Shown here piece after piece: positions 4,774-43,688 of a stretch of DNA of 64,000 nt (the stretch's first letter is position 1; each line of letters opens with the position of its first letter). Position numbers and translations under genes: made by a program. Source of the stretch: Escherichia phage cardinal; sequence record PQ567651.1. One strand, written 5' to 3'. Below the pieces are notes generated by a model. It did no database searches. It was not told the DNA's origin and worked only from the letters and a program-made list of their open reading frames with translations.

Positions 4774-5046
4774 TTAATGTCGTAGTTCACTAAACTTACA
4801 AACAAAGTGAACGTTAAGAAAAGTTAGTTTTCGATCTGGTGTAAACTCTGTTACTGTTTTATACACCTGTGCAATACCGAACCTGTTGATAGCAGGTACT
4901 GACAATTGGCTTATACATTTCATAGCTGACAGTTTTGCCTCTTCTTCAGATGCAAAATAAGTAAAGATACCTTCTTCGTCAACTATAATTTCTTGTGTAA
5001 CACAATCTACAAAACAAAAGAAAACATTAGGTAATTTTTCCGACAT
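4774..5046 (-). CDS. hypothetical protein
   Basis: 90-aa ORF with RBS. Confidence 0.5.
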   Translation of the reverse strand: MSEKLPNVFFCFVDCVTQEIIVDEEGIFTYFASEEEAKLSAMKCISQLSVPAINRFGIAQVYKTVTEFTPDRKLTFLNVHFVCKFSELRH

Positions 5047-5047
5047 A

Positions 5048-5260
5048 TTAGTTGTTCCTGTACTTAGAGAACAAAGTATTGACTAACCAGTCAGCAAACA
5101 GTAATCCAAGTGTACCAATACCGTAACCGATAAGCATAATGTAAGGCACTGCCTTATTTTCATTACCTGTCATTACTTCAGGAAAAATCAAAAACACAAT
5201 ACCGTTACCAACGATAATCCAGAACATAAGAAACACAAACATACGAAGCAACATTGTCAT
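5048..5260 (-). CDS. small hydrophobic (membrane) protein
   Basis: 70 aa, two hydrophobic segments. Confidence 0.5.
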   Translation of the reverse strand: MTMLLRMFVFLMFWIIVGNGIVFLIFPEVMTGNENKAVPYIMLIGYGIGTLGLLFADWLVNTLFSKYRNN

Positions 5261-5261
5261 A

Positions 5262-5444
5262 TTATTCTTCCTCCTTCACTTCTTCAACTTTACGAAGCAT
5301 ACGTTTATCAAATGTAGCTTTCTGTAGTTGTTCATTAACATCAAACCACACCACTTCGCAAGTATCGTAGGTAGATACCATTACAGTCATTAACATTTCT
5401 TCACTGGCAAGACGTACAATATCACCTGTTTTAATATTTACCAT
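5262..5444 (-). CDS. hypothetical protein
   Basis: 60-aa ORF, packed between neighbours. Confidence 0.45.
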   Translation of the reverse strand: MVNIKTGDIVRLASEEMLMTVMVSTYDTCEVVWFDVNEQLQKATFDKRMLRKVEEVKEEE

Positions 5445-5848
5445 AACTCCTCCAGAAGTTTACCAAGTTTAGTTTTAAATTCATTATCCCACGCTATACG
5501 AACTATGTCAAGATCACCTTGTGCATTACGTTTTGTATCTAAGTAGTAACCACCATGCTCATAGCGGTGTTTTATATGCTCGATCAGACGTTCTTTACCA
5601 CTCTTAGATAAATAATCATCAAATTCCCCATTGAAAAGGTCTAAGATTGTTTGTCTATTATCTCCTAATTGAGTGATTCTAAAGCTAATCAAACATCCCT
5701 GTAAACCTATATCTGTTTGTTTAAGAGAAAACTCATGACCAAAGCCGCCTGTAACTATAACAAGCGGTTTTCCTGTGATAGAGCTTTTAATAACATCTTG
5801 CTTAGGTTCTGCCAAAGATGTTAGAAACTCTTTTAACCATTTGAACAT
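5438..5848 (-). CDS. hypothetical protein
   Basis: 136-aa ORF. Confidence 0.5.
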   Translation of the reverse strand: MFKWLKEFLTSLAEPKQDVIKSSITGKPLVIVTGGFGHEFSLKQTDIGLQGCLISFRITQLGDNRQTILDLFNGEFDDYLSKSGKERLIEHIKHRYEHGGYYLDTKRNAQGDLDIVRIAWDNEFKTKLGKLLEELW

Positions 5849-6008
5849 AAACTCTCCTGTGTGGCGTGGCTTTGCCTAAGCGCCGAAGGCGCGGATCAAA
5901 TATAAGCTGAATTTATTACGCCCAGGTAGCCAGGGCGCATAAATATCAGAAATTTACCATCGAATAACTATTCGAGTAAAATTTTCATCGTAATGAGATG
6001 TTTCTGTA

Positions 6009-6203
6009 TCAATAAAAGTTGAAAAAACCTTCAGCATCCAAGCTAACTTTTGCGAAAGTTGGATAAAGCGTGTATATAGCAACTTCTCTGTCTCCATCTT
6101 TAGCTGCTCTCTCAATATACGCGTAGATATTTTGTAAACTCTCCTTTGCTTTGTTAAGTTCTGCGTTTTCTGCCAGTTCTCTCATTTTATCTGCTACAGT
6201 CAT
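6009..6203 (-). CDS. hypothetical protein
   Basis: 64-aa ORF. Confidence 0.45.
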   Translation of the reverse strand: MTVADKMRELAENAELNKAKESLQNIYAYIERAAKDGDREVAIYTLYPTFAKVSLDAEGFFNFY

Positions 6204-6472
6204 TTGTCAGTATCCTTTTCAATAAATCCTGTGGTTTTACAAGGCACACATTCATACATCTGTCCAACATCTGCAACTACCCAACCCATTCCATTGCAAT
6301 AAGGACAGATTGTTTTGTTCTCTTTAGCATACACAGCCAGAAGTCTTTCTTCTAGCTTGTTGTAATCAGCAAGAAGAACATAGTCTCCTTCTGGATCTGG
6401 TACAATATCACATTGACCAGCAGCACCTTGGCTGTACACCTCTAAATCATATCGTGTAACCATTATTCCCAC
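6200..6472 (-). CDS. small zinc-ribbon-like protein
   Basis: CPYCNG...CVPCK cysteine pairs; overlapping start/stop with neighbours. Confidence 0.5.
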   Translation of the reverse strand: MGIMVTRYDLEVYSQGAAGQCDIVPDPEGDYVLLADYNKLEERLLAVYAKENKTICPYCNGMGWVVADVGQMYECVPCKTTGFIEKDTDK

Positions 6473-6681
6473 TCCGCAATCAGTTTTGGATTTTCTGCAC
6501 GAGAATAGAATGTTGTAATGTCACCGTAAGTGTACTCTTGTTCCGACAGTTTTACAAGAGAGATCATTTCACGATCTGGAGTACCAGGAATCCAATCAAA
6601 TACGGCAACGCCACGTGGTGTTACATAGAAACCAGATGTATTACCCGTAAACTTATCTTTTCCTTTATATAATTTGTACAC
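6463..6681 (-). CDS. hypothetical protein
   Basis: 72-aa ORF. Confidence 0.45.
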   Translation of the reverse strand: MYKLYKGKDKFTGNTSGFYVTPRGVAVFDWIPGTPDREMISLVKLSEQEYTYGDITTFYSRAENPKLIAEWE

Positions 6682-6734
6682 TTTCTACTCCTCATAGATA
6701 GAATCTATTAAAAACCTGCTATCAATCGGTATAA

Positions 6735-6805
6735 ACAGTTTTACTTTTCGTAAAAAACATGCTACCCTAATCTTATATACCGAGCGATAGCGAGGTAGAG
6801 AATAT
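6735..6805 (+). promoter_or_regulatory. conserved ~70-nt intergenic element, copy A
   Basis: ttttacttttcgtaaaaaacatgctaccctaa...cgagcgatagcgaggtag matches copy at 33616-33685. Confidence 0.4.
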
Positions 6806-6888
6806 TCCATGTTATACATGGAAAGAGTATATGTAATGTTACTAACTCTATAACTAACTATATACTCTTTATACCTTACTTACTACTC

Positions 6889-7131
6889 TTATTGAAGTTC
6901 AAAGATATCCCCATCTCCATCATATCCATACTCTAACTCTCCTGTATCATATAATACAATAAAGTCTGTATCATCTTCAATAAAAGATTTAGCATAATCT
7001 ACTAACTCTTCATTATCTTCATACCCTTCCAGGTACTCAATACGACCATTGATACATTTAGCTGCAACAACTCCTGGGCCATTGCTTGGAGTCCACTCAC
7101 TGTATACTCGCATACCTAATTCTTTAATCAT
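6889..7131 (-). CDS. hypothetical protein
   Basis: ORF; start set at ATG preceded by GAGGAG. Confidence 0.5.
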   Translation of the reverse strand: MIKELGMRVYSEWTPSNGPGVVAAKCINGRIEYLEGYEDNEELVDYAKSFIEDDTDFIVLYDTGELEYGYDGDGDIFELQ

Positions 7132-7348
7132 TGTTTGTCTCCTCATAATCAATGTAGTTGTAACACTTATTCTTTAAGAAATCTTCTGCTTGTTTCTTGT
7201 GTTTTAGAATGATGCACTTCTCTTTATTCTGTTCTACATCATTATGTAGATTGTATAAGTTAGATGCACCATACAGAATACCAATTAACAAAAGCAAAAA
7301 GATTGCTGTTGATAACAAAAATTGTTGCAACTTGTTTACAGACTTCAT
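7124..7348 (-). CDS. small membrane-anchored protein (paralog of 12134-12343)
   Basis: N-terminal hydrophobic helix; shared C-terminal motif C(I/V)(I/V)LKH..AE.FL...Y.(D/N)Y; AAGGAGG RBS. Confidence 0.55.
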   Translation of the reverse strand: MKSVNKLQQFLLSTAIFLLLLIGILYGASNLYNLHNDVEQNKEKCIILKHKKQAEDFLKNKCYNYIDYEETNND

Positions 7349-7401
7349 AAACCCTCCTTATCGTTAGTACACATTGATACTAACAAGAAGTTAAGATCGT
7401 G

Positions 7402-7575
7402 TCAACATCTTTGTGTTAATTTTATCCACTGTTCACATTCTTCTTTTGTGTCGTACTCTACAGGCTTTCCTGTATCATTTCCACAACCATCTCCGAACGT
7501 AGCCCACCAGGAGAATAGAAAACAAGTTTCTCTTACTCTCCACTTATTGGCATAAGGTACAACATAATAACTCAT
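7402..7575 (-). CDS. small Cys/Trp-rich protein, 57 aa
   Basis: ATG overlaps upstream stop (ATGA); below track cutoff. Confidence 0.4.
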   Translation of the reverse strand: MSYYVVPYANKWRVRETCFLFSWWATFGDGCGNDTGKPVEYDTKEECEQWIKLTQRC

Positions 7576-7823
7576 AAGATTGTGATCCTTAGTTCATTTT
7601 CTAAGGTATGTCTCACACATTCTTTGAAATTGTTATCAATATAAACAACACGTACTCCATGAGGTGTTTCTTTACATTCAAACACATTATATACAGTGTC
7701 AGATAAGACATGTTGTACGTTTACTTGTCCAATACCATCTTTAACCACAACCATCACTTTCAGTAAACTTGTATGGTTTTTAACTTCATCTTCTACGTAT
7801 GCTACAACATCTTTGATATTCAT
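7572..7823 (-). CDS. hypothetical protein
   Basis: 83-aa ORF, AGGAGA RBS. Confidence 0.5.
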   Translation of the reverse strand: MNIKDVVAYVEDEVKNHTSLLKVMVVVKDGIGQVNVQHVLSDTVYNVFECKETPHGVRVVYIDNNFKECVRHTLENELRITIL

Positions 7824-8119
7824 TGTTTCTCCTGTTTAAGTACGATATAAGATTGACGAGATTTCCATCGTCCTATCTTAACAAGGCAAATAATGCCTCT
7901 CTTTAACAGATATTTCATATCTTCGTCATAAGCTGTTTGCAATTGCCACTTACTGTTAACAGGAAGAGAACCATGTACCCTTAAATGAGCTAACAGATAC
8001 TTTCTTCGCTCCTTCCCATAAGGCAGATATTGCCATTCTTTCTTTGATACAGGTTCATGTACTTTACGATGCCAGTAAGTAAGGTGTCTTCTTTTATGTA
8101 AACCCCTATTCCTTACCAT
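7820..8119 (-). CDS. basic hypothetical protein
   Basis: 99 aa, K/R/H-rich; GGAGG RBS. Confidence 0.5.
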   Translation of the reverse strand: MVRNRGLHKRRHLTYWHRKVHEPVSKKEWQYLPYGKERRKYLLAHLRVHGSLPVNSKWQLQTAYDEDMKYLLKRGIICLVKIGRWKSRQSYIVLKQEKQ

Positions 8120-8358
8120 TATACCTCTACCTCCGTTACCCCAGGATCTCTAGTCCAGGTGTAGTAGAGCATACCATCTTCTTTCAGTGCAATGCGATCA
8201 CTTTCGTCTCGAAGATATAGGTCACATACTACGCGCAGTTGCGGATCTGATCCGAGTAGTTCTGAAACAATAAGGTCATCACCGCTCATACGAGCAACAA
8301 TCACTGCATATTGACCAGTATCTGCATCAAAAATTGGTTGTCCGATGTTTAATTGCAT
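8119..8358 (-). CDS. hypothetical protein
   Basis: 79-aa ORF, AAGGAGA RBS. Confidence 0.5.
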   Translation of the reverse strand: MQLNIGQPIFDADTGQYAVIVARMSGDDLIVSELLGSDPQLRVVCDLYLRDESDRIALKEDGMLYYTWTRDPGVTEVEV

Positions 8359-8543
8359 TGTGTTGTCTCCTTATTCAGTACGTTGTTTTGTGCTGCGCAC
8401 CAGCACTCATAAAAACCTTGGGTTAATGGCATAGTGTAGTTTCCAGAAGGATCTCTTTCGAGATCCCCATCTGCATAACAACCACTACCTAAGAACCATT
8501 TTTCAAAATCGGATAAATCATCCCAATCTACACTATTTTTCAT
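8349..8543 (-). CDS. hypothetical protein
   Basis: ORF; start trimmed to internal ATG abutting upstream stop. Confidence 0.4.
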   Translation of the reverse strand: MKNSVDWDDLSDFEKWFLGSGCYADGDLERDPSGNYTMPLTQGFYECWCAAQNNVLNKETTQCN

Positions 8544-8544
8544 A

Positions 8545-9003
8545 TTATACTGTCTTATATCCGACAATAGCAACCTGATTCGTAGGCTTCCAACGACCAA
8601 TAATCTCACCAGAAATCTCTGTGCTACCATTTATGTATTGGTAATGGGTATCATCATGATTAACCCATGCCATAACGTCAAGAGTAGGGGTTTTGACGTG
8701 TACCAGTAGTGTAGCCCATTCTGGGGCTTCTTTAATATCCACAGAATCTTGCCAATCTTCTTCGATGTGCCAAGTAGGTTCGCCATCAACATCTGTAACG
8801 AAGAAACGAGCTTTCATACGTTTAAAGAACATTGGTGTATACCCATGATCGCACTCTGGGATAAAATCATCCATCGTTTCGTCATAGGTGAAATATTGTC
8901 CATCTTTATAATGAAAAGATGCACAAAACAGTTCATTACGAGCAGGAACATGCCATACAGCTACAAAACTACGACCATGTGGATAATGTTTAACCTCTTT
9001 CAT
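8545..9003 (-). CDS. hypothetical protein
   Basis: 152-aa ORF, AAGGAGA RBS. Confidence 0.55.
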   Translation of the reverse strand: MKEVKHYPHGRSFVAVWHVPARNELFCASFHYKDGQYFTYDETMDDFIPECDHGYTPMFFKRMKARFFVTDVDGEPTWHIEEDWQDSVDIKEAPEWATLLVHVKTPTLDVMAWVNHDDTHYQYINGSTEISGEIIGRWKPTNQVAIVGYKTV

Positions 9004-9018
9004 AGTTTTCTCCTTATT

Positions 9019-9363
9019 TTATTCAAAAGAATCAATTCGATTTTGTTCTATGTCAATTGCAGCTTCTAAGATAAGTTTTAATGCTTCAAATTGCAAGTCT
9101 TCCTCTAAAGAGAAGACATATAAAACAACGGATTCCAAGTAAGACAGCACTCCAAGACTAAGCGTTGCAATCTCTACTCCTGCATCGGAGAAACCTGTTT
9201 GCAAAACTTCTTTGAAGAAACGTTGTTTATCAACAATAGCAGATAAGATAAGCGTTTTACGCTCGTCTGCTGATCGTACTGTGCAGTATATGTTGCTAAA
9301 AGAATCTAGCCACATTTTGATCATACCTTGTCGGTACATAAGGATTTCAATATCAGCCAACAT
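9019..9363 (-). CDS. hypothetical protein
   Basis: ORF; start set at internal ATG (MLADIEIL) adjacent to upstream stop. Confidence 0.45.
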   Translation of the reverse strand: MLADIEILMYRQGMIKMWLDSFSNIYCTVRSADERKTLILSAIVDKQRFFKEVLQTGFSDAGVEIATLSLGVLSYLESVVLYVFSLEEDLQFEALKLILEAAIDIEQNRIDSFE

Positions 9364-9364
9364 A

Positions 9365-9532
9365 TTATCTCTCCTCTGGAGAAAGATTTGCATTAATTTG
9401 ATAGTAAAAATCAAAATCCTTGTGTTGATCGCACCATTCTTGAGCTTCTTTAAATGACGCAAATTGCATAGTGAATGTTGCCATCCACGTGTTCATACTT
9501 TTATTGAACTTGTCGATAAAAAATGTTTGCAT
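9365..9532 (-). CDS. hypothetical protein
   Basis: GGGAGGA RBS then ATG overlapping upstream stop (TAATG). Confidence 0.45.
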   Translation of the reverse strand: MQTFFIDKFNKSMNTWMATFTMQFASFKEAQEWCDQHKDFDFYYQINANLSPEER

Positions 9533-9750
9533 TATTCCTCCCATTTTATCCAAAGGCAGTATTCTGGAACATAAACCTCCTTCCCTTTGTTATTTACAAA
9601 GGTGTACTCCACAAATTCTGCTTTATATGTTTTGTTATATTCCTGTGCTGCTGGCACAGGACATTTTGTAATGCGCGTTTCAGTCCAACGGCGGTGTATA
9701 ACCGCCTTGTTCTTTGGATCAAACGGATGTATAAAGTGTGTTTTACTCAT
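9532..9750 (-). CDS. hypothetical protein
   Basis: 72-aa ORF from first ATG. Confidence 0.45.
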   Translation of the reverse strand: MSKTHFIHPFDPKNKAVIHRRWTETRITKCPVPAAQEYNKTYKAEFVEYTFVNNKGKEVYVPEYCLWIKWEE

Positions 9751-10147
9751 GCGCCATTTCCACAAGATTTTTAATCATAGTTTCTCGACAGAGATTCCAC
9801 ATGTCCGAAGCAACCATAGCAGCATATTCATCGGGGTTGGATTCTGGTAAAATCTCTTTAACTGCTTCTGGTGTCGGGTTGCACATAGCAGGTAGTGCTT
9901 TAAGTGCATCTTCAATAGAGAGCTTTTTACCTTCACTGTAAATAACTTCGTAAGCATAGTCATTTACATCTTCTGGAATATCTTGATCCAGGTAACGCAC
10001 AGTAGAGTTATGCATTTTGTTCATAGCTTCACTAACACCAGCGCCACAAAGCTGTGCAACTTCTTTAGAGATACAGTCACAAATAACAACTTCGTAAGGC
10101 TTTCCACCATAATACTGCGCATTATATTTGATTTTAACAGACCACAT
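9743..10147 (-). CDS. hypothetical protein
   Basis: 134-aa ORF with AAGGAGAG RBS. Confidence 0.55.
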   Translation of the reverse strand: MWSVKIKYNAQYYGGKPYEVVICDCISKEVAQLCGAGVSEAMNKMHNSTVRYLDQDIPEDVNDYAYEVIYSEGKKLSIEDALKALPAMCNPTPEAVKEILPESNPDEYAAMVASDMWNLCRETMIKNLVEMAHE

Positions 10148-14083: not shown

Positions 14084-14542
14084 TTATGCTCCATTAAAGA
14101 CGGGGCGTGTAGCATTACGTTCATCATTCACTGTAATAAGGTTTTTCATAACCATAACACCCTGAATATAGCCTAACCAACGATGGCGTTTGGTTTCAGA
14201 CATACCATTACACCCATCCTGAATTTCATTCAACATCCACAGTAAGTGGGAAGCACCTGTTTCACTGGTATCTGGATCTTCTACAGAACTAAGAATCGTT
14301 TCATAGCGTTCACAAATTTCTGGGTAGAATTCATAATCCTGTTGTACATCTCGCATTTCTCGAATGAAGTGACGAGCAATAGGCTTCCCACGAAAATATT
14401 CATTGATGAAATCAATAACACACATCTCACTGCCTGTCACCACGGAAGGCGTTCCTATGTTAAATTGAACACTCACACCGCATTCTTTTACAAGATTATG
14501 TACACGCTCAGTGTTAGCAAGATACAAAGATACAGTTTTCAT
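14084..14542 (-). CDS. hypothetical protein (first gene of leftward block)
   Basis: 152-aa ORF next to the large non-coding region. Confidence 0.5.
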   Translation of the reverse strand: MKTVSLYLANTERVHNLVKECGVSVQFNIGTPSVVTGSEMCVIDFINEYFRGKPIARHFIREMRDVQQDYEFYPEICERYETILSSVEDPDTSETGASHLLWMLNEIQDGCNGMSETKRHRWLGYIQGVMVMKNLITVNDERNATRPVFNGA

Positions 14543-15000
14543 TTACACCTCTCATTAGTAGTTTGTTATGCGCGATATTGCATATTTTATGGAACACAGT
14601 GTACAGACATTTCTATTCAATGCAAGCATTATTTGCATCTTATAAATTTACGTCTCATGCCACACATCATACAGCGTCTTTTCATCTATTACAAGAACAG
14701 CAACCTAGGAACATCATTAATGGAGGGATTAGTATAGGGATTAGTATAGGATTTCCCTATCAATTATTCTATATATACCTAATATTTTTAACACACCCCT
14801 TTGTACATAATATAGACAAATAAATATCTATGCCACAAAAATTTTCTGGTATACCCGATTTATTTCGACACACCCCCTTTTCATAAGCGTAAAGTCAATA
14901 ATATCAATAACTTGCCGCAAAATACTGCTCGCTTGCGAGAGGTGCTTAACGCGATTTTCAGCGCCCCCCCGATTTCTGCCGACCGTCCCCCTCAAATATC

Positions 15001-15036
15001 AATGAGAATAATTATCATTTGCATTATCATTCAATG
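15001..15036. promoter_or_regulatory. Fur-box-like palindromic site(s)
   Basis: aatgagaataattatcatttgcattatcattcaatg; overlapping (n)AT(a/t)AT hexamers. Confidence 0.4.
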
Positions 15037-15198
15037 ACTTATAAGACTTTTGATTATTTTCTGAGCAAGAAAGGTACTACTCACAACAAAACAGATAAAT
15101 TCTAAGTAAATCAATGGCTTGGCAAGTCTAAACATCTATATACACCTTGCCAAATGAAATGATCTGGCGTGAAATAGTGCCACCCGTGGAAGATAGCT

Positions 15199-15217
15199 GA
15201 TAATGATTATCATTTGC
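15199..15217. promoter_or_regulatory. Fur-box-like 19-mer
   Basis: GATAATGATTATCATTTGC vs E. coli Fur consensus GATAATGATAATCATTATC (16/19). Confidence 0.45.
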
Positions 15218-15450
15218 ATACTTTCTGTACTATAAAACCGACTAAAAATCAAGATAATTCTGATTTATTGCGCTTTTAAGAGAGTAGGCTCAACAAATAA
15301 CAACAAATGAGGTATGTTATAGGGGCAATAGTATGAAAAATCATCTATTCAGATGTAAATAATTTTGCGCAATAGTGGTAATATTTTTCTTGACAAGAAA
15401 GATTTCTTTGTGTGCACATAGCGCCCCTGGAGGGTGGCGCATTATGATCA

Positions 15451-15504
15451 TCAGTGTCATTATTCATTTCAGTGTCATTATTCATTTCAGTGTCATTATT
15501 CACC
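15451..15504. repeat. tandem direct repeat, 3 x 18 bp
   Basis: tcagtgtcattattcatt repeated three times head-to-tail. Confidence 0.9.
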
Positions 15505-15604
15505 ATGTTTATTATTGCATAGCTTATTATATGGAGCTTATATTATAGCCAATGTTCTAAACATTAGCTAATAATAACGCACCGCAACAATGTAAGGGAT
15601 ACAA

Positions 15605-15745
15605 TATACCATGTATATTGTTGCGCTTGCAATTGTTGCAAGCTACATAAGCACAAATAATAACTATCGGTGATGGTTATTATGTGGGGTGTGTAGTTGC
15701 GTTATTATTAGCCGCCTATGTGTCCGGCATAGGCTGCTAATGATA
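15605..15745. repeat. inverted-repeat cluster
   Basis: gcttgcaa-ttg-ttgcaagc palindrome and gccgcctatg...cataggctgc hairpin. Confidence 0.6.
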
Positions 15746-15779
15746 CGCTTGCGAATTATATTTCTTGTTATAGTTATTG

Positions 15780-16203
15780 TATGGAATGATTACTACATGA
15801 AATGGTTACTGTATGAAATGATTATCTAAGTAATAGATAGGAAGGTAAAGATTAGATCATAAATAGATAGGATGTGAATTATTTAGTAATGTTACTAACA
15901 ATTTAATAGTTACTTTGTGCAACAATTCGATAGATTATAATTGTAGTTTTAAGGGTTAGATAGATTATATTTAGCTTAGTAATGATTTATATTAGTTATT
16001 ATTGTTTAATACAATGTTATCAATGAGATAGTAACAGTAAGTTATAAATAAAGGTGAGATAATTAGTTTTAATTTAGTTAGATAACTTATTATTTTATAG
16101 GTTAGATGGTCTTAAGTTAAGAATGATTCTCATTATTGCATTATGCAATTTATTGCATAAATAATCAGCTATAAATAAGAATGATTATCATTTAAGAGGA
16201 AAG
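15780..16203. repeat. AT-rich iteron-like region with Fur-box-like sites near 3' end
   Basis: repeated tagatag(g) and atgaaatg(g/a)tta motifs; agaatgattctcattattgc and agaatgattatcattta near 16120-16203. Confidence 0.5.
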
Positions 16204-16402
16204 ACAAGAAAAAGGCTGTTTTTGCCAGGTAATTACATGAAGAAATTAAAAATAAGCGGTCTAAAACACGTTGTAAGCGCCTTATGATCTTCATGGTATG
16301 GTTGTTCATCTGCTCCTTGATTAGCTCGATACCGCGATCTATTCACTTTTTTCGGTGAACGTTTTTGATAGGTAAAAGCTATCATCTTTATTTAGGTAAA
16401 AA

Positions 16403-16430
16403 GAAAGGGCGCAATAAGCGCCCTTGTTTG
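16403..16430 (-). terminator. hairpin terminator after gene 16440-16811
   Basis: aagggcgc-aataa-gcgccctt plus T-run on minus strand. Confidence 0.5.
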
Positions 16431-16439
16431 AAATGTTAT

Positions 16440-16811
16440 TTACTGATAAGCTGGATCGTTTGTTATATCAATCCAATGAGATAAATTAATTTTATTTTTT
16501 GCTTTCATTTTCTCGATCAAACGTTCGGCTAATGTTTCTGAACGAATATAAACATGCTCGCTAAAATCTTGCCCCGTTTCTTCGTCGATCATTTCTCTAT
16601 ATTCAACCTTGCCGATAAACGCATAAGTTTTACCCGTGTACCAGTTATGTAAATGGATCTCGCATTTATAATCATCGCTATACCCTTCGGTTGTTCTAAC
16701 TTCAACCAAGTCACCTTTAAACACTGATAAGCACCACATAGGATCACGATCTACAGCGCCGTTAAAATCTTTACCGTTTACAGTAGCCGCCAGGTTGATG
16801 ATATTGCTCAT
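16440..16811 (-). CDS. hypothetical protein
   Basis: 123-aa ORF with GAGGAA RBS. Confidence 0.55.
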   Translation of the reverse strand: MSNIINLAATVNGKDFNGAVDRDPMWCLSVFKGDLVEVRTTEGYSDDYKCEIHLHNWYTGKTYAFIGKVEYREMIDEETGQDFSEHVYIRSETLAERLIEKMKAKNKINLSHWIDITNDPAYQ

Positions 16812-24785: not shown

Positions 24786-25169
24786 AGTGTGCGCCTTATA
24801 GAATGATTGAAACAACAATTGCTACAGTGATCCACACTGGAACGGCTAACAAAATAGCGTTAATCGTTCCAACCGTCAAGCTGTTTTCTTTCTTGATCAT
24901 CGTTATCAACCTTTTATAAGTAATGTTATTGTGACGGTGGATTGTGGAGATCCTCACCTTTGCCCGTCCTGCATTGCGCCCTCCTTTTGTTTATTGTCGT
25001 TGTGCCTCGCCCCCCTCGACAAGATGAATAATACGCTACCAGGTGAGGAACGTCAACCCCTTTTTTAATCTTTTTTTCATTTCTTTTTTTTGCTTGCTAT
25101 CTATAAAGGAAAGGGCTATTATCTTTCTACCACGCCAACCAGGGCGCACATCAAAGAAAGGGCGATACC

Positions 25170-25436
25170 ATGACAAATACTACTTTACACCTCATGCACT
25201 CATTAGGCTGGCAAGGCGGCACGGTGCACCAGGTAGCAAGCGCAACGGGCTTAAAGGTTGAAACCGTTCTCAACCTGGGCGATCATAAGGTGGAAGAAAT
25301 AGATCATTTTGATACGTTCGCAAATGGTTATCTATGGGCTTGCAGTGGCGGCGGGGAAAGCAAGATCCCACCAGGGGCGCGGGGTGATATATATTTTTGG
25401 TTAGGTGTCCTATCCTGGCAAGAAAACAAAAAATAA
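25170..25436 (+). CDS. hypothetical protein
   Basis: 88-aa ORF with AAAGAAAGGG RBS; TTGCTA-N17-TATTAT upstream. Confidence 0.45.
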   Translation: MTNTTLHLMHSLGWQGGTVHQVASATGLKVETVLNLGDHKVEEIDHFDTFANGYLWACSGGGESKIPPGARGDIYFWLGVLSWQENKK

Positions 25437-25437
25437 T

Positions 25438-25472
25438 ATTGACAAGCCCAGGGATCGGGCTTATACTGTTTT
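25438..25472 (+). promoter_or_regulatory. sigma70-like promoter with palindrome in spacer
   Basis: TTGACA-agcccagggatcgggct-TATACT; spacer is an inverted repeat. Confidence 0.55.
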
Positions 25473-25586
25473 ACATACAGAAGAGGAAGCGCCACCCCCA
25501 CGGCGTAAAGGCGGGGCTAACATACCAGGGCACTACTGGTTGGAAGGTTGATCGCTGGTACAACGTATTTACAAAGGAGGTTAGCA

Positions 25587-26180
25587 ATGAAAAAAGTTTT
25601 TGGAGTAGGCATTAACGATAGTGCAAAGCCGATCAAAGGTTGTCGATTCTATGCAACATGGCGCAACATGTTACAACGTTGTTATAGTGAATCATATCAG
25701 GACAAAAGGCCATCTTATAAAGGTTGTAGTGTTTGTGATGAATGGTTGACGTTTAGCACTTTTCGTGCTTGGATGGAACAGCAGGATCACCAGGGAAAAC
25801 AATTAGATAAAGATATAATAACACCGGGTAATAAACTCTATTGTCCTGATCGTTGCGTATTTGTAACGCAAGAAATGAATAGTTTGTTAACAGTTACAAA
25901 GAGTAACAAAGGGGATCATCCTTTGGGTGTTTCATTTTTGAATCATAAACCATTGCCGCGCCCTTATTTAGCAACAATACGTTATAATAACGTAGTGGAA
26001 AGATTAGGGTACTATGTAGATCCTTTATCCGCTCATTTGGCCTGGAATAGGCGCAAACGTGAAATAATCATAGAGATTATTAGTAATGAAACGGATTCAA
26101 GGATCGCCGCTGGCTTGGCTTTACGTGTTGACGCTCTCGATCTGGCTTATGAAAATAAAGCGGAAATAACTTGCTTATGA
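25587..26180 (+). CDS. putative homing-endonuclease-like protein with AP2-type DNA-binding domain
   Basis: N-terminal YATWRNMLQRCY...CDEWLTFSTFRAWM and AP2-like YLATIRYNNVVERLGYYVDPLSAHLAWN; AAAGGAGG RBS. Confidence 0.4.
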   Translation: MKKVFGVGINDSAKPIKGCRFYATWRNMLQRCYSESYQDKRPSYKGCSVCDEWLTFSTFRAWMEQQDHQGKQLDKDIITPGNKLYCPDRCVFVTQEMNSLLTVTKSNKGDHPLGVSFLNHKPLPRPYLATIRYNNVVERLGYYVDPLSAHLAWNRRKREIIIEIISNETDSRIAAGLALRVDALDLAYENKAEITCL

Positions 26181-26184
26181 CGCT

Positions 26185-26217
26185 TGACAAGCGCCCGACA
26201 AGGGCGCATAATCTCTT
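26185..26217 (+). promoter_or_regulatory. sigma70-like promoter with palindrome in spacer
   Basis: TTGACA-agcgcccgacaagggcg-CATAAT; gcgccc...gggcgc inverted repeat. Confidence 0.5.
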
Positions 26218-26435
26218 ACATAGACAGGAACGCCTACCAATGGCGCTAAACTTGGTGATGATAGCCGCAGGGCATCGACAGCTATAATCGCCGGTAGCTC
26301 GTCTAAAATAAATTTGTAAAGAAATGTAAAGATAAAAATAATCGCTTGCTTTTGTTGTTGGTTATGCTATTCTTATTGTATGGCGAGGGGACACGGGAGC
26401 GCGAGACAAACACCGCCCCTGCGCGTTATTTTCTA

Positions 26436-26550
26436 AATGAGAAAATTCTCATTTGCTAATGATTCTCATTCTCTTACTGAGAATGATTATCACTTACATA
26501 ATTAAATGATAATGATTCTCATTTACAAATGAGAATGATTATCATACGCA
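26436..26550. promoter_or_regulatory. cluster of Fur-box-like palindromes
   Basis: aaatgagaaaattctcattt, aatgattctcattctc, gagaatgattatcac, gataatgattctcattta, gagaatgattatcatacg. Confidence 0.45.
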
Positions 26551-26564
26551 TACCTATAAAAACA

Positions 26565-26775
26565 CGAAATTGAACTTTTCATTTTTGATTTTTCTACGGA
26601 AAAAGGCAAAAAAACTTTAAATAAACTGGGGAATTTTTAAAAAATTGAAGTTTTCATTTTCAAAATCTGGATAGAAATACGTACAAAAACTTTAAATAAT
26701 TTTGACCAAACTTGAACTTTTCATTTTCAAAATTTGTACCCAAAAATCTGTAAAAACTTTAAATAATTTTGTACT
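26565..26775. repeat. three ~65-bp imperfect direct repeats
   Basis: units start aaattgaa(c/g)ttttcatttt... and end ...aaaaactttaaataa at about 26568, 26642, 26711. Confidence 0.8.
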
Positions 26776-27082
26776 TTTTATAAAAATGATTTTACTGTTC
26801 TGTTATAAGTAGTAGTTAAGAGATAGTATGCCTTTTAAAGATCAGATACCATAGTCAAACAAACAAATTAAATACTTTATTAACAGAGTACAGAATAATA
26901 TTTACTCTGGATATATTATTCAGAGGGTGGATTTCCGTACATGAAACCCACACCCCTTTTTATAAAAATAAAAATTTTCAAAATATCAGTAAATATCAGA
27001 TTGTGCTTTTAGATAAACAGCAAGGTCTGTATGCCATTTTCCTAAAAGATTTTGTCCTTTCCAACAGTCCTTATTTTCCACA

Positions 27083-27538
27083 TCACGATCCCACATTCCC
27101 ATTTTTGATACCATAAATAGAATCATAAGGGCTTGCCTCTACGAACTCCTTATCTGCGTAAGCGATAAGTTTATTTTTGAGATCTTCATTTTGTGTGTAT
27201 TTAAGATACAAACCACGTTTGACAATCTTCTCCCGTAAAGAAGTCCAGGTATCTTCATCATAATCTTTAACTAATCTGCCTAGACGTTTATAATATGCTT
27301 GTTCTTTTTCTCCTGTATATCTTAGATCTCCGGTTAAAATAGAAGATGCAATATTGTAATCATAAAACAAACATGCTTTTCTCCACATCATATATTGTTC
27401 CACACAAGTAAATTCGACAGAACTTGTGATAGAATTATTATACTTGGGAGCTAAAGGTTCAATAAAAGATGATAGATACCAGTTGCTAAATTCATCTTTT
27501 GCCGAGAAAAAGAACACATACTTGTCAGTAATCCGCAT
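27083..27538 (-). CDS. NADAR (YbiA-like) domain protein
   Basis: YVFFFSAKDEFSNWYLS, FTCVEQYMMWRKACLF, EFVEASPYDSIYGIKNG align with E. coli YbiA motifs. Confidence 0.75.
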   Translation of the reverse strand: MRITDKYVFFFSAKDEFSNWYLSSFIEPLAPKYNNSITSSVEFTCVEQYMMWRKACLFYDYNIASSILTGDLRYTGEKEQAYYKRLGRLVKDYDEDTWTSLREKIVKRGLYLKYTQNEDLKNKLIAYADKEFVEASPYDSIYGIKNGNVGS

Positions 27539-28936
27539 TTACACCTCCTTATTGTATACTAATTTGCCACCATATTGTGTAACAATTTTTTGAAGATTTT
27601 CCAAATCAGAAACACTTACTGTTTCTGTATGACCATCTTTCAACTCTCTTGCCGTTAAAATACCAGTTTTTAATTTTTTCTTTATAGCTCTTTCAGCAGC
27701 CTTACATTGTTTCACTGTGCTAAAATCATATAAACAAATACGCTCCATAGGAAACATATTACAGCTATTTTGACGTTTTAATCGACTATCACTATTTTTA
27801 GCTATACCAAACTTAAGAGCAACTATAATATTATCATCCTTAACAATATTAATATATAACTGCTGCTGACTATGACCAGCACACATAGGACAACCTCGAC
27901 CGTGGCTTAATAAGGCATTAGCCCTCCCTGTCTGTTCCCCATGCACAAGACAAAGATATTTAAACTTACCGTGACTTCTAGACGGTTTACCGATCCAACC
28001 TACCCAGACATACCCTTTCCCTTCTACTTCCTTTTTTACCCTGTAGGTAATCTGATTTTCTGTATAGTGATAACTAGTTGCACAGCGGCAAGGGATACTT
28101 CCTTGTTTTAGGGGCCACCCTTTAGAGTAAAATTTACCATCGCAAACACCTGCTTGAACATATTCATCATGGGAGCAAACAGGACACTCAACCATCCATA
28201 CTGCATCACGCTTGTTACGTTTCCCTGTATTGGTGAAGATAGTGCCTTCCTTAAATTTCCCTGTAGAAAAGAAATCTGCAATATGTTGATCGTCGGACAT
28301 TGTTAGTGCCTTCCTTGTATTCTCATACCTACATAAAGGACAACCATAACCACGTTTAAAATTGTTAATACTTGTAGTATCCCATTTATAACCACAGTGA
28401 CACAACAAATCAAGTTTTGTTTTATGTCCTTTCCATTTTCCAACGTACCCTAACACCTGATACCCCTTCTTCTGTGCTATCTCTTCCAAGATCGGTAATT
28501 CTGTTTCCCATGCTAACGGTTTATTACTTGCACATGCCGGACAACCACGTCCATTCCTAAAATCAATAATGTTTGTGGTGTTCCACTCTCCATGTTTAGG
28601 GCAAATTATGCGAATTTTTGTTCGCACACCTCGCCACTCCTCGGCAAGACCTATAAAAGTAAACCCTCTTTCTTTAGCAATATCAACAAGGGAGATACAT
28701 TCCTTTTCTTCTGTTACTTTTCTATGACCATTGCAATCGGAGCAACATTTACCGCCTTTAGTTTTAAATACATTGATTATGGTACTTTCCCACTCTCCAT
28801 GATCAGAGCAAGATAGCTTAAGCCTAGTCCTGCTACCTTTCCATTCACCAACATAACCCAAGATTTGAATATTGTGATTTTTAGCAAGGGGTATTAATTC
28901 TTCTTTATATTGTTCCCATGATTTTAGTGCTACCAT
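27539..28936 (-). CDS. Cys/His-rich triple-repeat protein with C-terminal GIY-YIG-like (T5orf172-type) domain
   Basis: three modules of form GYVGxWKG..TKL.L.C..HGEW.T..I..F..G.GCP.C; C-terminal LYINIVKDDNIIVALKFGIAKNSDSRLKRQ. Confidence 0.45.
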   Translation of the reverse strand: MVALKSWEQYKEELIPLAKNHNIQILGYVGEWKGSRTRLKLSCSDHGEWESTIINVFKTKGGKCCSDCNGHRKVTEEKECISLVDIAKERGFTFIGLAEEWRGVRTKIRIICPKHGEWNTTNIIDFRNGRGCPACASNKPLAWETELPILEEIAQKKGYQVLGYVGKWKGHKTKLDLLCHCGYKWDTTSINNFKRGYGCPLCRYENTRKALTMSDDQHIADFFSTGKFKEGTIFTNTGKRNKRDAVWMVECPVCSHDEYVQAGVCDGKFYSKGWPLKQGSIPCRCATSYHYTENQITYRVKKEVEGKGYVWVGWIGKPSRSHGKFKYLCLVHGEQTGRANALLSHGRGCPMCAGHSQQQLYINIVKDDNIIVALKFGIAKNSDSRLKRQNSCNMFPMERICLYDFSTVKQCKAAERAIKKKLKTGILTARELKDGHTETVSVSDLENLQKIVTQYGGKLVYNKEV

Positions 28937-36995: not shown

Positions 36996-37472
36996 ATGTC
37001 TAAACGTTTTGGTCGTAATCAAAAAAGAAAGTTAAGTGCTCAACTAGCAGCTTTGCAAAAAGAGGTTAACACTTTACAAAAAAGTGTTTGTGAACTTAAG
37101 GAACAAAACCAACTTGAAAAAGAGTGTATCCAGCTTACACAGGAAGTTATTGGTGAGTATTTTCCTTCACTAGTTCCTAAGAAGGTGGCTCTTAGGGAAA
37201 ATCTACCTTTTACCTTGTCCTTAATGCAAGCAAATGATAGATTCCAAACTGAAACTGATGATTTGATGTTTGCAATGCATCAATTACATGGTTTAGAATA
37301 TACAGCACAAGTGGATAAACTTCGTAACATGTTATATGTGCGGGTAGAAACACCTAAAGGTGAGACAGTAGCTTTTAATTATAATTTCCAACAGCTACCT
37401 GATCATATTATTGAACAAATTTTAAAACGAGATTTTGTTCCTATGCTTGTTAAACAAATTAAGAGAGGTTGA
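36996..37472 (+). CDS. hypothetical protein (coiled-coil N-terminus)
   Basis: 158-aa ORF. Confidence 0.5.
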   Translation: MSKRFGRNQKRKLSAQLAALQKEVNTLQKSVCELKEQNQLEKECIQLTQEVIGEYFPSLVPKKVALRENLPFTLSLMQANDRFQTETDDLMFAMHQLHGLEYTAQVDKLRNMLYVRVETPKGETVAFNYNFQQLPDHIIEQILKRDFVPMLVKQIKRG

Positions 37473-37473
37473 A

Positions 37474-40248
37474 ATGGCTAAGAAAGAGTTGAGCTTCACT
37501 CCGACAGAAGAGCAAACAGCTATTAAGGAGGCTTTTCCAGATCATCGCTTTTTAACTATCCAAGCTAAATCTGGATCAGGTAAAACGTCAACACTTTATT
37601 TGCTGGCTAACAGTACAGAAGATCGCATTCTTTACTTAGCTTTCAATAAAAGCATGGCAGAAGAAGCACGACGTAAGATGCCACCAAATGTAGAATGCCG
37701 TACATTGCATTCTATTTGCTATCAATTCCTGGATCATCGTTTACGTGCAAAACTGTCACGACCAGAAGGACAGTATGTTAACGTTGCAGGTACAGGTAGC
37801 GAGATAGCAAAGAAATTTAAGATTAATAATCTTATTGATAAACGAGGGAAAACACTTTTAACTCGTGCTATGATTGGTTTAATGATCAAGCAAACCGTAG
37901 GTAAGTTTGAATTTTCGGATGATCCTTTTATCAGCCGTAAACATTTTCCTAGTGTACATCTTGCAGATATTAAAAGAAAAGGTATTAACGAACACAAACT
38001 AATTACAGAAGTAGTTAAGTATGCAAAACAATTGTGGCGAGAGCGCATCGATCCTAACACAGATACTTTGATGACGCATGACACCTATGTAAAATTGTTT
38101 GAATTGTCTGGTGCTGATCTTGGTTATGACATTATTTTTGGGGATGAATTCCAGGATGTTAACCCTGCATTCTTGTCTATTCTGCGAAATGCTAAATCTG
38201 CAAAACAAATTGTGGTAGTTGGCGATGAATTCCAATGTGTGTCGGAAAACACGGTACTTAACACCGAGAATGGTCAGGTTACAATGAAAGACCTGCAAAT
38301 CGGTGATAAGGTAGAGTCTTATTCTAATGGTAAAGTTACATTTAGAAAAGTAACAAATAAGACTTTATCTACACGTACAAAAGGTAGGAATATTATTACT
38401 GCTACAGGTAAAACTTTAGATATGACACATAACCATCGTATTTGGGCTTCATCCTATGTTCTGAAAGATGACCAGATGGTGGTATACCTAATGTGGAGGA
38501 AAGATTTAGGTTTCCGAGTAGGGATCACTAACAAATTCGATGATAAAGAAGGTTTTTCTAAACTGGGGCAACGTACACGTTCTGAAAAAGCACAGAAATT
38601 ATGGGTGTTGGACATTGTTGAAAATCGCGAAGCTGCTATGGAAAAAGAAATGGCATACAGTTTACAATATGGCATTCCTACTTGTGTATTTGAAGCAAGT
38701 TCACGCGGCATTAATCAAGAAAGGATCAATAACATCTTTGAACAATTCGGACAAAATGGTTTTAAACTTTTAGAGGATAAAGATTATCATTTTGCTTATC
38801 CACACTGGCACAGCATCAATTGTGCAGTAGATGAAAGAAAAATGCTAACAGTGACTTTGCGAGCACAAAGTTGTAAAGGAACACAAGTTAGTTTTGAGTG
38901 GACAGAAAGTGAAATGCCGATCTATTCTTCACTGATTAAAGCAGGTGTAAGCGTAAGTGCTGCTAAATTGGAAGGTCGTTACCGTGTACGTAAATATTTC
39001 AATTCTTATCGTGAAGCATTGAGTTTTGCACAAAAGATCCTTGAAATAGTTCCGTTTGCATCTTTAAAAGAATGCATGTCCTCTGTGAACAGTGCCAAAT
39101 ATAACTTAATTCCGGCAGCGGGTTTGTTTAAAGGCATGTCTGTGTTGGTAAAAGATGGTGATACTGTAACGGCAGAAGAGATTGTGGATATTGTAGATAG
39201 TGAGGGTATCTATTATGATATTGAAGTAGAGGATACTGCTAACTTCTTTGGCAATGAAATTCTTAGCCACAACTGCATTTATCAATTTAGAGGTAGCTCT
39301 AATATGATGATTGAAACAGCTAAGTATGGGGCAGAACTTCCATTAACTGCTTGCTTCCGTTTTGGCCCCAAAGTGGCAAACATTGCCAATATGATTTTAA
39401 GCGATAAAGAACCTTTGCGTCATCCTTTGGTTGGTAAAGGCTTTGATACTGTAGTAGGTAGCTACAAATCAGATGTTGTAGACTATACAAAACCTTACAC
39501 TATCATCTTTCGCAAGAATTTAACCTTGCTTATGGAGGCAATGGATCGTATTGCAGATGGGGAAGAAATTATTATTAACGTAGATACCAGGGATTTTATC
39601 TCTATGGTAGATAGTGTTAATGCTCTTCGGAGAGGAGATATTGAGAAAGTAAAACATGAAACTGTATTACCTTACGCAGACTGGGATGAATTTGTTGAGT
39701 GTGCAGAGGCTGATCCAGATGCTAAACGCTTGTTAAACATCGTAGTTTCTGGTAAGGCGAACACCATAGCACATACACTTAGAACGCACAGAAATTCTCC
39801 TACAGCAAAAGTCACACTTACTACAGCACACAAGTCTAAAGGTTTGGAGTGGGATCAGGTTATTGTTGCTAATGATTTTCCTTCCAACTATGATAAAAAG
39901 ACTGGTGAATGGGTAGGACTAGAAGAGGCAGAGCGAAACCTACTGTATGTAGCGCATACCCGTTGTGTTAAATGCTTACAATGGAACACAACCGTACAGG
40001 AGATTATAGATATCAATCGTGTTGCAACAGAGAAAGTACCAACAAGCACCACTTTACCGATCAATGGTATTAAACTTGGTGTATTTGGCGCTGGCACATC
40101 TCGAAAAACTGTAGAAAAATTTGTTGCAGATTCTTTTGATGGTAACTATAATCATGCACAAGCATATGAGAGTTGGTTAGAGGAAGGTGAAGGTGATTTT
40201 TTAGGTGAAATAAATCTTTTACCAGACATAAATAAACTGGTAAACTAA
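37474..40248 (+). CDS. SF1 (UvrD/PcrA-like) DNA helicase containing an intein
   Basis: Walker A AKSGSGKTSTL, motif II FGDEFQD, motif III VVVGDEFQ|CIYQFRG split by 346-aa insert; AAGAGAGG RBS. Confidence 0.8.
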   Translation: MAKKELSFTPTEEQTAIKEAFPDHRFLTIQAKSGSGKTSTLYLLANSTEDRILYLAFNKSMAEEARRKMPPNVECRTLHSICYQFLDHRLRAKLSRPEGQYVNVAGTGSEIAKKFKINNLIDKRGKTLLTRAMIGLMIKQTVGKFEFSDDPFISRKHFPSVHLADIKRKGINEHKLITEVVKYAKQLWRERIDPNTDTLMTHDTYVKLFELSGADLGYDIIFGDEFQDVNPAFLSILRNAKSAKQIVVVGDEFQCVSENTVLNTENGQVTMKDLQIGDKVESYSNGKVTFRKVTNKTLSTRTKGRNIITATGKTLDMTHNHRIWASSYVLKDDQMVVYLMWRKDLGFRVGITNKFDDKEGFSKLGQRTRSEKAQKLWVLDIVENREAAMEKEMAYSLQYGIPTCVFEASSRGINQERINNIFEQFGQNGFKLLEDKDYHFAYPHWHSINCAVDERKMLTVTLRAQSCKGTQVSFEWTESEMPIYSSLIKAGVSVSAAKLEGRYRVRKYFNSYREALSFAQKILEIVPFASLKECMSSVNSAKYNLIPAAGLFKGMSVLVKDGDTVTAEEIVDIVDSEGIYYDIEVEDTANFFGNEILSHNCIYQFRGSSNMMIETAKYGAELPLTACFRFGPKVANIANMILSDKEPLRHPLVGKGFDTVVGSYKSDVVDYTKPYTIIFRKNLTLLMEAMDRIADGEEIIINVDTRDFISMVDSVNALRRGDIEKVKHETVLPYADWDEFVECAEADPDAKRLLNIVVSGKANTIAHTLRTHRNSPTAKVTLTTAHKSKGLEWDQVIVANDFPSNYDKKTGEWVGLEEAERNLLYVAHTRCVKCLQWNTTVQEIIDINRVATEKVPTSTTLPINGIKLGVFGAGTSRKTVEKFVADSFDGNYNHAQAYESWLEEGEGDFLGEINLLPDINKLVN
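38236..39273 (+). mobile_element. intein (346 aa) in helicase motif III
   Basis: N-terminal CVSENTVLNT (block A), TLDMTHNHRIW (block B), C-terminal YYDIEVEDTANFFGNEILSHN then +1 Cys. Confidence 0.75.
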
Positions 40249-43441: not shown

Positions 43442-43688
43442 AAACTATAACTGCTCATGTAAAATCTGCCTAAACGGGGGAACTCTCAACGAGACAATCC
43501 CGTGCTAAACGTAACAGAACTCCCAACACAGAAGAAGGGGGGTACTATTACGAAATGCCTAACGACTAGCTGTGATGAATGTAGCAGCGTAGGGTGTAAG
43601 CCTATGACACCCCAAATGGTAGACATGCTTTAAGCATGAAGATATAGTCTGATCTGCATGGTGACATGCAGCAGCACGTAATGGTGCG
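43442..43688 (+). ncRNA. group I self-splicing intron (ORF-less) in nrdD; boundaries approximate
   Basis: aaatctgcctaaacggggg...gagacaatcccgtgctaaa...aatgcctaacgacta...aagatatagtctga.ctgcatggtgacatgcag resembles the T4 nrdD (sunY) intron core as recalled from memory. Confidence 0.7.

Follow-up and report, generated by a model that had tools for sequence, protein, structure and literature searches.

Predicted Fur-box arrays in the terminal repeat and a second gene-free region of a phi92-like Escherichia coli phage

Introduction

The closest described counterparts of the element studied here are the multi-box operators of Fur, the iron sensor of Escherichia coli, and the element itself is a set of predicted Fur-box arrays in a 64,000-nucleotide stretch of Escherichia phage cardinal (record PQ567651.1), referred to as a whole as the window. 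The operators at fepB-entC, fepA-fes, cirA and ryhB share with the phage arrays the same 19-bp consensus, the construction from hexamers and 7-1-7 units and the 6-bp phase of overlapping sites, and aerobactin iucA is another multi-box operator. The 7-1-7 model of the Fur box is said to go back to Baichoo and Helmann, and the hexamer model of Fur sites to Escolar and de Lorenzo. Chromosomal Fur operators overlap the -35/-10 elements of the gene that they regulate and each promoter of the set tested has 0-2 matches reaching 14 bits, whereas in the phage 7 such matches are found within ~115 bp of gene-free DNA where no strong promoter is overlapped.

Several other systems resemble the locus in part. 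On temperate phages, a Fur box is present in the stx1 promoter. Lambdoid prophages have a Fur box upstream of sitABCD (PMC6969025). Such boxes likewise link DNA carried by a phage with the iron regulon of the host; they are single operators before a cargo gene, however, while the window belongs to a virulent phage whose arrays stand before no gene and are partly located in the direct terminal repeat (DTR). The arrays also resemble titration loci and decoys, such as the plasmids of the Fur titration assay or datA for DnaA, in that many high-affinity sites without an adjacent regulated gene reside on a high-copy replicon, but they are positionally fixed beside the genome ends, which a pure decoy does not need. 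In lambda cos, sites for the host protein IHF are located beside the region cut by terminase. The protein is a different one and the likeness lies in host DNA-binding sites beside the cutting of genome ends.

The phage under study is a virulent phi92 relative, a phi92-like myophage (Stephanstirmvirinae, Justusliebigvirus) with phage EmilieFrey as its top match (95.6% identity). In the literature searched, with the phi92 genome paper outside it, there is no earlier description of Fur-box arrays in the terminal repeats or non-coding ends of a virulent phage, and nothing that connects Fur boxes with virulent phages or with the stop signal of phage T5.

Results

The palindromes have the sequence properties of Fur boxes

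Sites were scored with a Fur matrix of 19 columns, derived from the best site, located iteratively, in each of 14 Fur-controlled promoter regions of E. coli K-12 (fepA-fes, fepD-entS, fepB-entC, fhuA, fecA, fecI, cirA, tonB, exbB, fur, ryhB, fiu, fhuE and sufA), and unless stated otherwise all bit scores refer to the background richest in A+T, which was taken from the scored region. The real K-12 sites, each left out in turn, yielded 5.2-18.0 bits with a median of 13.0, and the phage sites 14.2-23.1 bits on the same matrix. Matches of at least 14 bits number seven in each of the two gene-free regions of the window, designated non-coding regions 1 and 2 (NCR1 and NCR2, Table 1), against expected values of 0.030 and 0.013, respectively. 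When the background was set to uniform and the threshold to at least 16 bits, 50.9 kb of E. coli non-promoter DNA contained no match and the window 16. A scan of this type against shuffled sequence of equal AT content had been suggested in the first-pass annotation, where the palindromes were initially noticed, and the phage sites clearly stood far above the shuffles: the count of seven was reached in none of 2000 dinucleotide-preserving shuffles of the same AT-rich region. The same enrichment was observed for simpler patterns. The textbook 19-mer GATAATGATAATCATTATC with at most 3 mismatches is found 5 times in the window (0.07 expected), and the 13-bp core AATGATTATCATT with at most 2 mismatches 32 times (6.5 expected; no shuffle out of 100 reached this number), with the core matches concentrated at 15001-15019, 15202, 16122, 16180 and 26458-26546. 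A repeat finder that worked without any Fur reference also retrieved the motif, as family D3, and recovered TGAGAATGATTATCA three times.

The fine structure of the sites follows both models of Fur recognition. From 28 sites of six phages, none overlapping another, the consensus GCAAATGAGAATCATTCTCATTT was obtained, a 10-1-10 palindrome with the 7-1-7 unit TGAGAATnATTCTCA at its centre, and the arrays are runs of GATAAT-type hexamers around such a unit. Array A, for example, reads on the - strand as approximately six hexamers, GATAAT GCAAAT GATAAT T ATTCTC ATTGAT. Matches in 6-bp phase start at 14998/15004/15010, 26473/26479, 26502/26508 and 26525/26531, and an extra match of 10.9 bits is placed in the same phase at site B, the highest-scoring site of the window. 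Directly after the 19-mer, at a base outside the matrix, an A is conserved, in agreement with the 7-1-7 model.

Most of the positions given in the first-pass annotation were recovered. The palindrome GATAATGATTATCATTTGC at 15199-15217 agrees with the consensus in 16 of 19 positions on the + strand, as had been reported, and in 17 of 19 on the - strand; agaatgattctcattattgc at 16120-16139 and agaatgattatcattta at 16178-16194 were both found, and so were a second cluster at 26436-26550, which opens with a degenerate palindrome at 26436-26457, and the 1.9-kb gene-free region, delimited here by the homologues of phi92 gp001 and gp248. GAGAATAATTATCATTTGC is likewise present, but it spans 15004-15022 and had been placed one base too early, at 15003. 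Apart from the two regions, an isolated box of 13.8 bits at 38776-38794, inside a helicase reading frame, probably arose by chance, as the corresponding part of the complete 148-kb genome of the relative 'alia' has no match of at least 12.5 bits.

With scores at or above those of validated E. coli sites, hexamer and 7-1-7 arrays, strong enrichment and conservation across genera (see below), the identification as Fur boxes was borne out. In score, array architecture and frequency the palindromes are indistinguishable from Fur boxes and mostly stronger than real Fur operators, and we regard them as predicted binding sites.

Table 1. Positions of the arrays, of their single sites and of neighbouring features (window coordinates unless another phage is named)
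Feature	Position	Strand	Remarks
NCR1	14543-16439		no credible genes; 1897 bp, 68% A+T
phi92 gp001 homologue	14084-14542	-	flanks NCR1
phi92 gp248 homologue	16440-16811	-	flanks NCR1
DTR homologue	14947-15290		predicted physical genome ends; phi92 DTR-L and DTR-R aligned to the window
Fur array A	14998-15028		within DTR; three 19-mers in 6-bp phase, 15.2, 20.3 and 14.3 bits
Fur site B	15193-15217		within DTR; GCAAATGATAATCATTATC on - strand, 23.1 bits
Fur site C	16119-16137		15.3 bits
Fur site D	16171-16195		15.9 and 14.2 bits, 6-bp phase; kept across genera
Conserved non-coding stretch, site D to terminator	16196-16404	+	contains the 29-mer TTGATTAGCTCGATACCGCGATCTATTCA at 16317-16345
Terminator hairpin, G+C-rich, after gp248 homologue	16405-16425	-	U-rich tails on both strands in Phapecoctavirus
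HNH homing-endonuclease gene	25548-26180	+	beside cluster 2
NCR2	26181-27082		adjoins gp223 homologue
Block nearly invariant across genera	26312-26437	+	adjoins array; TTGTAA-17-AATAAT promoter-like site, G+C-rich hairpin, T-rich tail
Fur array, cluster 2	26436-26549		in NCR2; 11,489-11,603 bp from DTR outer end
Cluster 2 box	26455-26473		18.9 bits
Cluster 2 boxes	26473-26497		15.4 and 19.3 bits
Cluster 2 boxes	26502-26526		16.7 and 22.4 bits
Cluster 2 boxes	26525-26549		21.0 and 15.9 bits
Three direct repeats	26567-26787		start-to-start 67-75 nt (TTGAACTTTTCATTTT...AAAAACTTTAAATAA); other side of array; also in Phapecoctavirus
phi92 gp223 homologue	27083-27538	-	
Phage sites, start positions	15199, 26508, 26525, 15004, 26479, 26455		23.1, 22.4, 21.0, 20.3, 19.3 and 18.9 bits
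Eight more sites, start positions	14998, 15010, 16119, 16171, 16177, 26473, 26502, 26531		14.2-16.7 bits
phi92 array	136988-137105 (phi92)		11,507-11,624 bp from right end; 7.7-7.8% of genome
T5 array	9470-9645 (T5)		from left end; 7.8-7.9% of genome
LL12 array	12.2-12.3 kb from outer end of repeat (LL12)		8.9-9.0% of genome

Position of both clusters relative to the predicted genome ends

The phi92 record starts and ends at the junction equivalent to NCR1, between gp248 and gp001, and annotates direct terminal repeats of 343 bp. For the relative BME3 a DTR of 342 bp is independently reported (PMC12210895), and its record begins at approximately window position 14948, matching the boundary inferred from phi92; both DTR boundaries are kept in Phapecoctavirus. 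Arrays A and B, which hold the two strongest boxes of NCR1, are found 51 and 73 bp inside the two boundaries. Being part of the repeat, they would occur twice in the virion DNA, within ~50-345 bp of either end. Sites C and D follow 210-290 bp past the terminator of gp248. In the relatives inny and PATM, two additional small genes (~660 bp; L001 3096-3831 and L002 3115-3850, against window positions ~14560-14990) are located between the DTR and gp001; they are absent from the window phage and from phi92.

NCR2 with cluster 2 lies ~11.5 kb inward, at the inner edge of a block of about two dozen small genes beside the terminus, to which no function has been assigned. The nearly invariant block on one side of it stops exactly where the Fur array starts. 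The block has the look of a small RNA gene, but its hairpin shows no covariation and phiWec179 disrupts pairs, so that a structured RNA is unsupported. The neighbouring HNH gene is contained in a stretch of ~740 bp that was unmatched in any of the 144 phage records matching the query 25000-27600, and which therefore reads as an insertion specific to this phage. In T5 an HNH gene likewise splits the repeat regions of the terminal repeat.

Further repeats accompany the boxes. NCR1 contains three 18-nt tandem repeats (cagtgtcattattcattt) at 15440-15502 and repeats of the type GATAGATTATA at a spacing of 30 nt at 15817-15972; together with the direct repeats of NCR2 they look like iterons and may thus belong to an origin or serve in packaging. 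On the - strand, the motif AAAGGGG(G)TGTG is present at 14792-14802, 14869-14879 and 26949-26959, in all cases in NCR1 or NCR2, and these three copies, against 0.77 expected, are the only ones of the whole window.

The arrays are conserved where their surroundings are not

Three genera of Stephanstirmvirinae and one rV5-like phage have both clusters at equivalent places on their maps. In 'alia' a single match of 14 bits or more (126238) is found outside the same two regions. In DIJ07P2 (Phapecoctavirus) and phiWec179, assigned to a distinct new genus in the paper describing it and still filed under Phapecoctavirus in its record, coding sequences are ~70-85% identical and non-coding flanks barely align; both clusters, array A among them, are nevertheless kept in position with different box sequences. 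The rV5-like phage LL12 (Vequintavirinae) has a DTR of 459 bp as defined by PhageTerm (PMC6658697). Two boxes of 13.2 and 14.5 bits are contained in this repeat, and a second gene-free region has boxes of up to 22.9 bits in an array that starts 11.7 kb past the inner edge of the DTR. Phage CR3 and Klebsiella phage KB57, also Vequintavirinae, have arrays in gene-free gaps as well.

A BLAST search with the 131-bp array returned 380 phage records, overwhelmingly phages of Enterobacterales as judged by organism or host name, with a few filed under Campylobacter, Pseudomonas, Acinetobacter or Listeria. Among them are about a hundred T5-like phages (Demerecviridae), matched ~9-10 kb from an end. A search of IMG/VR for further relatives with an invariant 22-mer yielded 2 contigs only. 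Recent capture of a host promoter or other host DNA was rejected as a source, the array being without a match in 5,426 E. coli genomes, and no Fur homologue was detected in the window or in the whole 'alia' genome (tblastn, E above 5). As the motif is common to Stephanstirmvirinae, Vequintavirinae and T5-like phages, a shared host protein is a simpler partner than a shared phage protein. On the comparative sequence evidence, the arrays are under selection and restricted to two non-coding regions that are associated with the ends of the genome.

Candidate transcription signals near the boxes

At site D, TTGCAT precedes by 17-18 nt a -10-like AAGAAT located inside the box, an arrangement that is conserved but agrees weakly with a promoter, in 7-8 of 12 positions by hand count. 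As strong evidence for a -35 element after the boxes TTGCAT was rejected: it matches TTGACA in only 3 of 6 positions, and sites A and B do not keep its spacing. It may be better read as a further hexamer of the Fur type (ATTTGC/GCAAAT).

Between site D and the terminator, the 29-mer TTGATTAGCTCGATACCGCGATCTATTCA is invariant in the aligned Justusliebigvirus and Phapecoctavirus sequences except for one base in DIJ07P2, and a conserved mini-ORF of 8 codons (MVVHLLLD / MVIRLLVD) terminates within it. RNAalifold predicted -33.8 kcal/mol for the stretch 16196-16404, with 6 double-change pairs from ~2-3 independent lineages, and -26.3 kcal/mol for the opposite strand. The stretch may correspond to a + strand transcript, a candidate for a Fur-repressed small RNA, with weak support from RNA structure. 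In a scan of the window against Rfam the only match was a group I intron elsewhere.

Comparison with the injection-stop region of T5

In T5 (AY587007), boxes of 14-22 bits at 9470-9645 coincide with the annotated copies 1-4 of 'direct repeat C' (DRC), or palindromes E-I. The array is located directly right of the DnaA-box inverted repeat IRD'-spacer-IRC' and directly left of the 7.9% nick, and the shear point of first-step transfer, at 9618, falls within it. Positions 2411-2575 and 2907-2931 of the record L022 were noted together with this array. Iron and Fur are never mentioned in the comparative study of the T5 injection-stop region by Davison (preprint).

The window phage resembles T5 in having large, gene-free and repeat-rich regions, of which NCR1 contains the DTR and NCR2 is the second, and in the same Fur-type boxes at ~8% of the genome length. 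In contrast, T5, whose injection-stop region is Repeat Region 3 of the left terminal repeat, has 10-kb repeats, nicks and DRD repeats, none of which were found or are known in the window phage, and neither is a counterpart to the A1/A2-dependent two-step transfer; the boxes themselves are the sole sequence similarity between the two regions. Paired DnaA boxes of the T5 type are absent, with no TTWTNCACA in NCR1 and a single one at the far edge of NCR2 (27074), and 20 ORFs located between the two regions or beside NCR2 gave no match to an annotated family of the pre-early genes A1, A2 or dmp. All their matches were to endonuclease families or to PHROG families without a known function. Since neither paired DnaA boxes nor A1/A2 were found, we do not class the region as a member of the T5-type injection-stop regions. 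The resemblance is architectural and consists of gene-free repeats, the same boxes and a similar fractional position.

A bolder and quite unlikely extension is that the arrays are a shared host-factor element that marks the terminal, 'first-entering' segment in large virulent phages of enterobacteria. The T5 stop signal would then at least in part be a Fur-Fe2+ polymer on the DRC repeats, and phi92- and rV5-like phages would have a checkpoint at the array ~11.5 kb (7.8%) from one end, with the boxes of the DTR in addition.

Other features of the window and of related records

The phage encodes an anaerobic ribonucleotide reductase, NrdD, at 42584-44663. The gene is split by a group I intron (Rfam RF00028, 72 bits) at 43396-43671 on the + strand, and the ORFs 42584-43450 and 43692-44663 match the N- and C-terminal halves, respectively, of Pfam NRDD. 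A UvrD-like helicase ORF of 937 amino acids (37435-40248, +) has a probable intein at approximately residues 267-613, for which the Intein_splicing and Hint matches are slightly under the Pfam cut-offs.

Several GenBank records labelled 'Campylobacter phage' (A150, A145, C3 and A110a) are ~92% identical to this group of E. coli phages, and single records labelled as Pseudomonas, Acinetobacter and Serratia phage match the group likewise. Their host labels are probably wrong, or the records contaminated.

Discussion

We assign a probability of roughly 50% to the reading that the arrays are selected, high-affinity sites for dimers of host Fur-Fe2+ and that they act in cis as an iron-dependent occlusion or roadblock on the non-coding regions. 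We infer that Fur binds to them, that it does so in an iron-dependent manner in the infected cell, and what such binding might achieve. In an iron-replete cell, Fur-Fe2+ would polymerise on the arrays, and the resulting complex would bar RNA polymerase, and perhaps other machines that move along DNA, from binding to or entering the non-coding end regions; a candidate target would be the weak + strand promoter with its -10 element inside site D. Under iron starvation Fur would be released from the arrays, and the soaking up of Fur while the genome replicates would likely be a side effect. Occlusion in cis is favoured because the positions of the arrays are strictly conserved and because the arrays follow terminators and do not precede genes. 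It is also favoured because T5 has the same arrays and yet destroys the host DNA, so that a pure decoy would be pointless there.

A number of observations weigh against this reading. No strong sigma-70 promoter overlaps the boxes, as the best overlapping sites agree in no more than 9 of 12 positions. Promoter-like sites show no enrichment over shuffles (18 against 14.2 +/- 3.9 and 7 against 5.8 +/- 2.9). The likely promoter of gp001, TTGCAT-16-TACACT (~14588-14615, - strand, identified by eye), is free of boxes and ~330 bp past the DTR, and the arrays are generally found downstream of terminators or gene ends, not upstream of genes. Because of the missing strong promoter and the position after terminators, a classical operator role finds weak support and the roadblock in cis is a conjecture. 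Note also that the position of the DTR in the window phage was derived from homology, not from sequencing reads, that the agreement between the motifs of phage and real sites (mean r 0.92) is partly circular, since the textbook consensus had seeded the matrix by which the phage sites were then chosen, and that the copies inside one array are repeats and not fully independent events.

In a somewhat improbable alternative, Fur serves as an architectural factor in a process at the genome ends, be it a pause in DNA entry like the T5 injection stop, the organisation of the concatemer junction for terminase, as by IHF at lambda cos, or an antagonism to H-NS on the AT-rich ends. The positions of arrays A and B, 51 and 73 bp inside the DTR boundaries, fit such a role, and cluster 2 of phi92 parallels in its fractional position the T5 array at the DnaA-box repeat, the 7.9% nick and the shear point; furthermore, each of the two lineages has an HNH endonuclease inserted within or next to its repeat regions. 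On the other hand, phi92- and rV5-like phages are not known to inject their DNA in two steps, the two regions of the window are without the paired DnaA boxes of T5 and the 20 ORFs without A1, A2 or dmp, and the agreement in percentage may be a coincidence, as LL12 deviates at 8.9-9.0%.

It is unlikely that the arrays function primarily as a sponge, in which ~9-10 consensus-grade boxes per genome, in hundreds of copies, would titrate Fur off the chromosome. This would derepress iron uptake, RyhB and NrdHIEF and thereby feed iron-dependent enzymes of the phage such as the anaerobic NrdD, which the phage does encode. Numerous sites that outscore the best chromosomal ones and are located away from promoters are in line with such titration. 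A single Fur box on a multicopy plasmid reportedly derepresses a reporter (Stojiljkovic and co-workers in 1994, the Fur titration assay), and E. coli is said, by Zheng and co-workers in 1999, to contain ~5,000-10,000 Fur molecules; with ~20 dimers per genome, 100-200 genomes would bind an amount of the same order as the cellular Fur. Decoys, however, need no strict map position in the DTR and ~11.5 kb inward. T5 moreover reportedly degrades the host DNA within minutes, so that derepression of host genes by the same arrays would on this account achieve nothing there.

Operators or iterons for a phage-encoded protein of Fur-like specificity, whether a replication initiator, a small subunit of terminase or an early repressor, are very unlikely. 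The arrays do reside in repeat-rich, gene-free regions resembling origin or packaging regions, with many small ORFs of unassigned function next to them. Yet the motif equals the consensus of host Fur, with scores reaching 23 bits, and conforms to both the 7-1-7 and the hexamer model, no DNA-binding family was identified among the 20 ORFs near the arrays, and the explanation is disfavoured by the lack of an encoded Fur homologue and by the occurrence of the motif in the Demerecviridae, as T5-like siphoviruses and phi92/rV5-like myoviruses belong to separate families. That AT-rich, neutral repeats merely came to look like Fur boxes without a protein partner is hardly credible, for although repeats abound in the regions and 68% of their bases are A+T, the shuffles never attained the observed count, and the boxes persist where their flanks have diverged and recur in the separate family of T5-like phages.

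The first-pass annotation had proposed that the palindromes couple phage gene expression to host iron status, titrate Fur or serve as operators for a phage protein of similar specificity. Their identity as Fur boxes stands; among the proposed functions, control of promoters finds weak support, titration is plausible on the numbers, and operators of a phage protein are disfavoured. The annotation had noted neither the location of two of the sites in the DTR, nor the distance of ~11.5 kb between the second cluster and the terminus, nor how common such arrays are in large virulent phages that infect enterobacteria.

If the arrays are functional, virulent phages would read or exploit the iron sensor of the host on their own chromosome ends. 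The phage groups that bear them are widely used in therapy cocktails and meet iron-starved bacteria in gut, urine and blood, and an iron-dependent behaviour of these phages, if true, would have practical consequences. The arrays also give a testable lead on the decades-old question of what stops T5 DNA at 7.9%, and should they indeed be a host-factor element shared by these phages, DNA entry or the switch from pre-early to early expression would depend on the iron status of the host.

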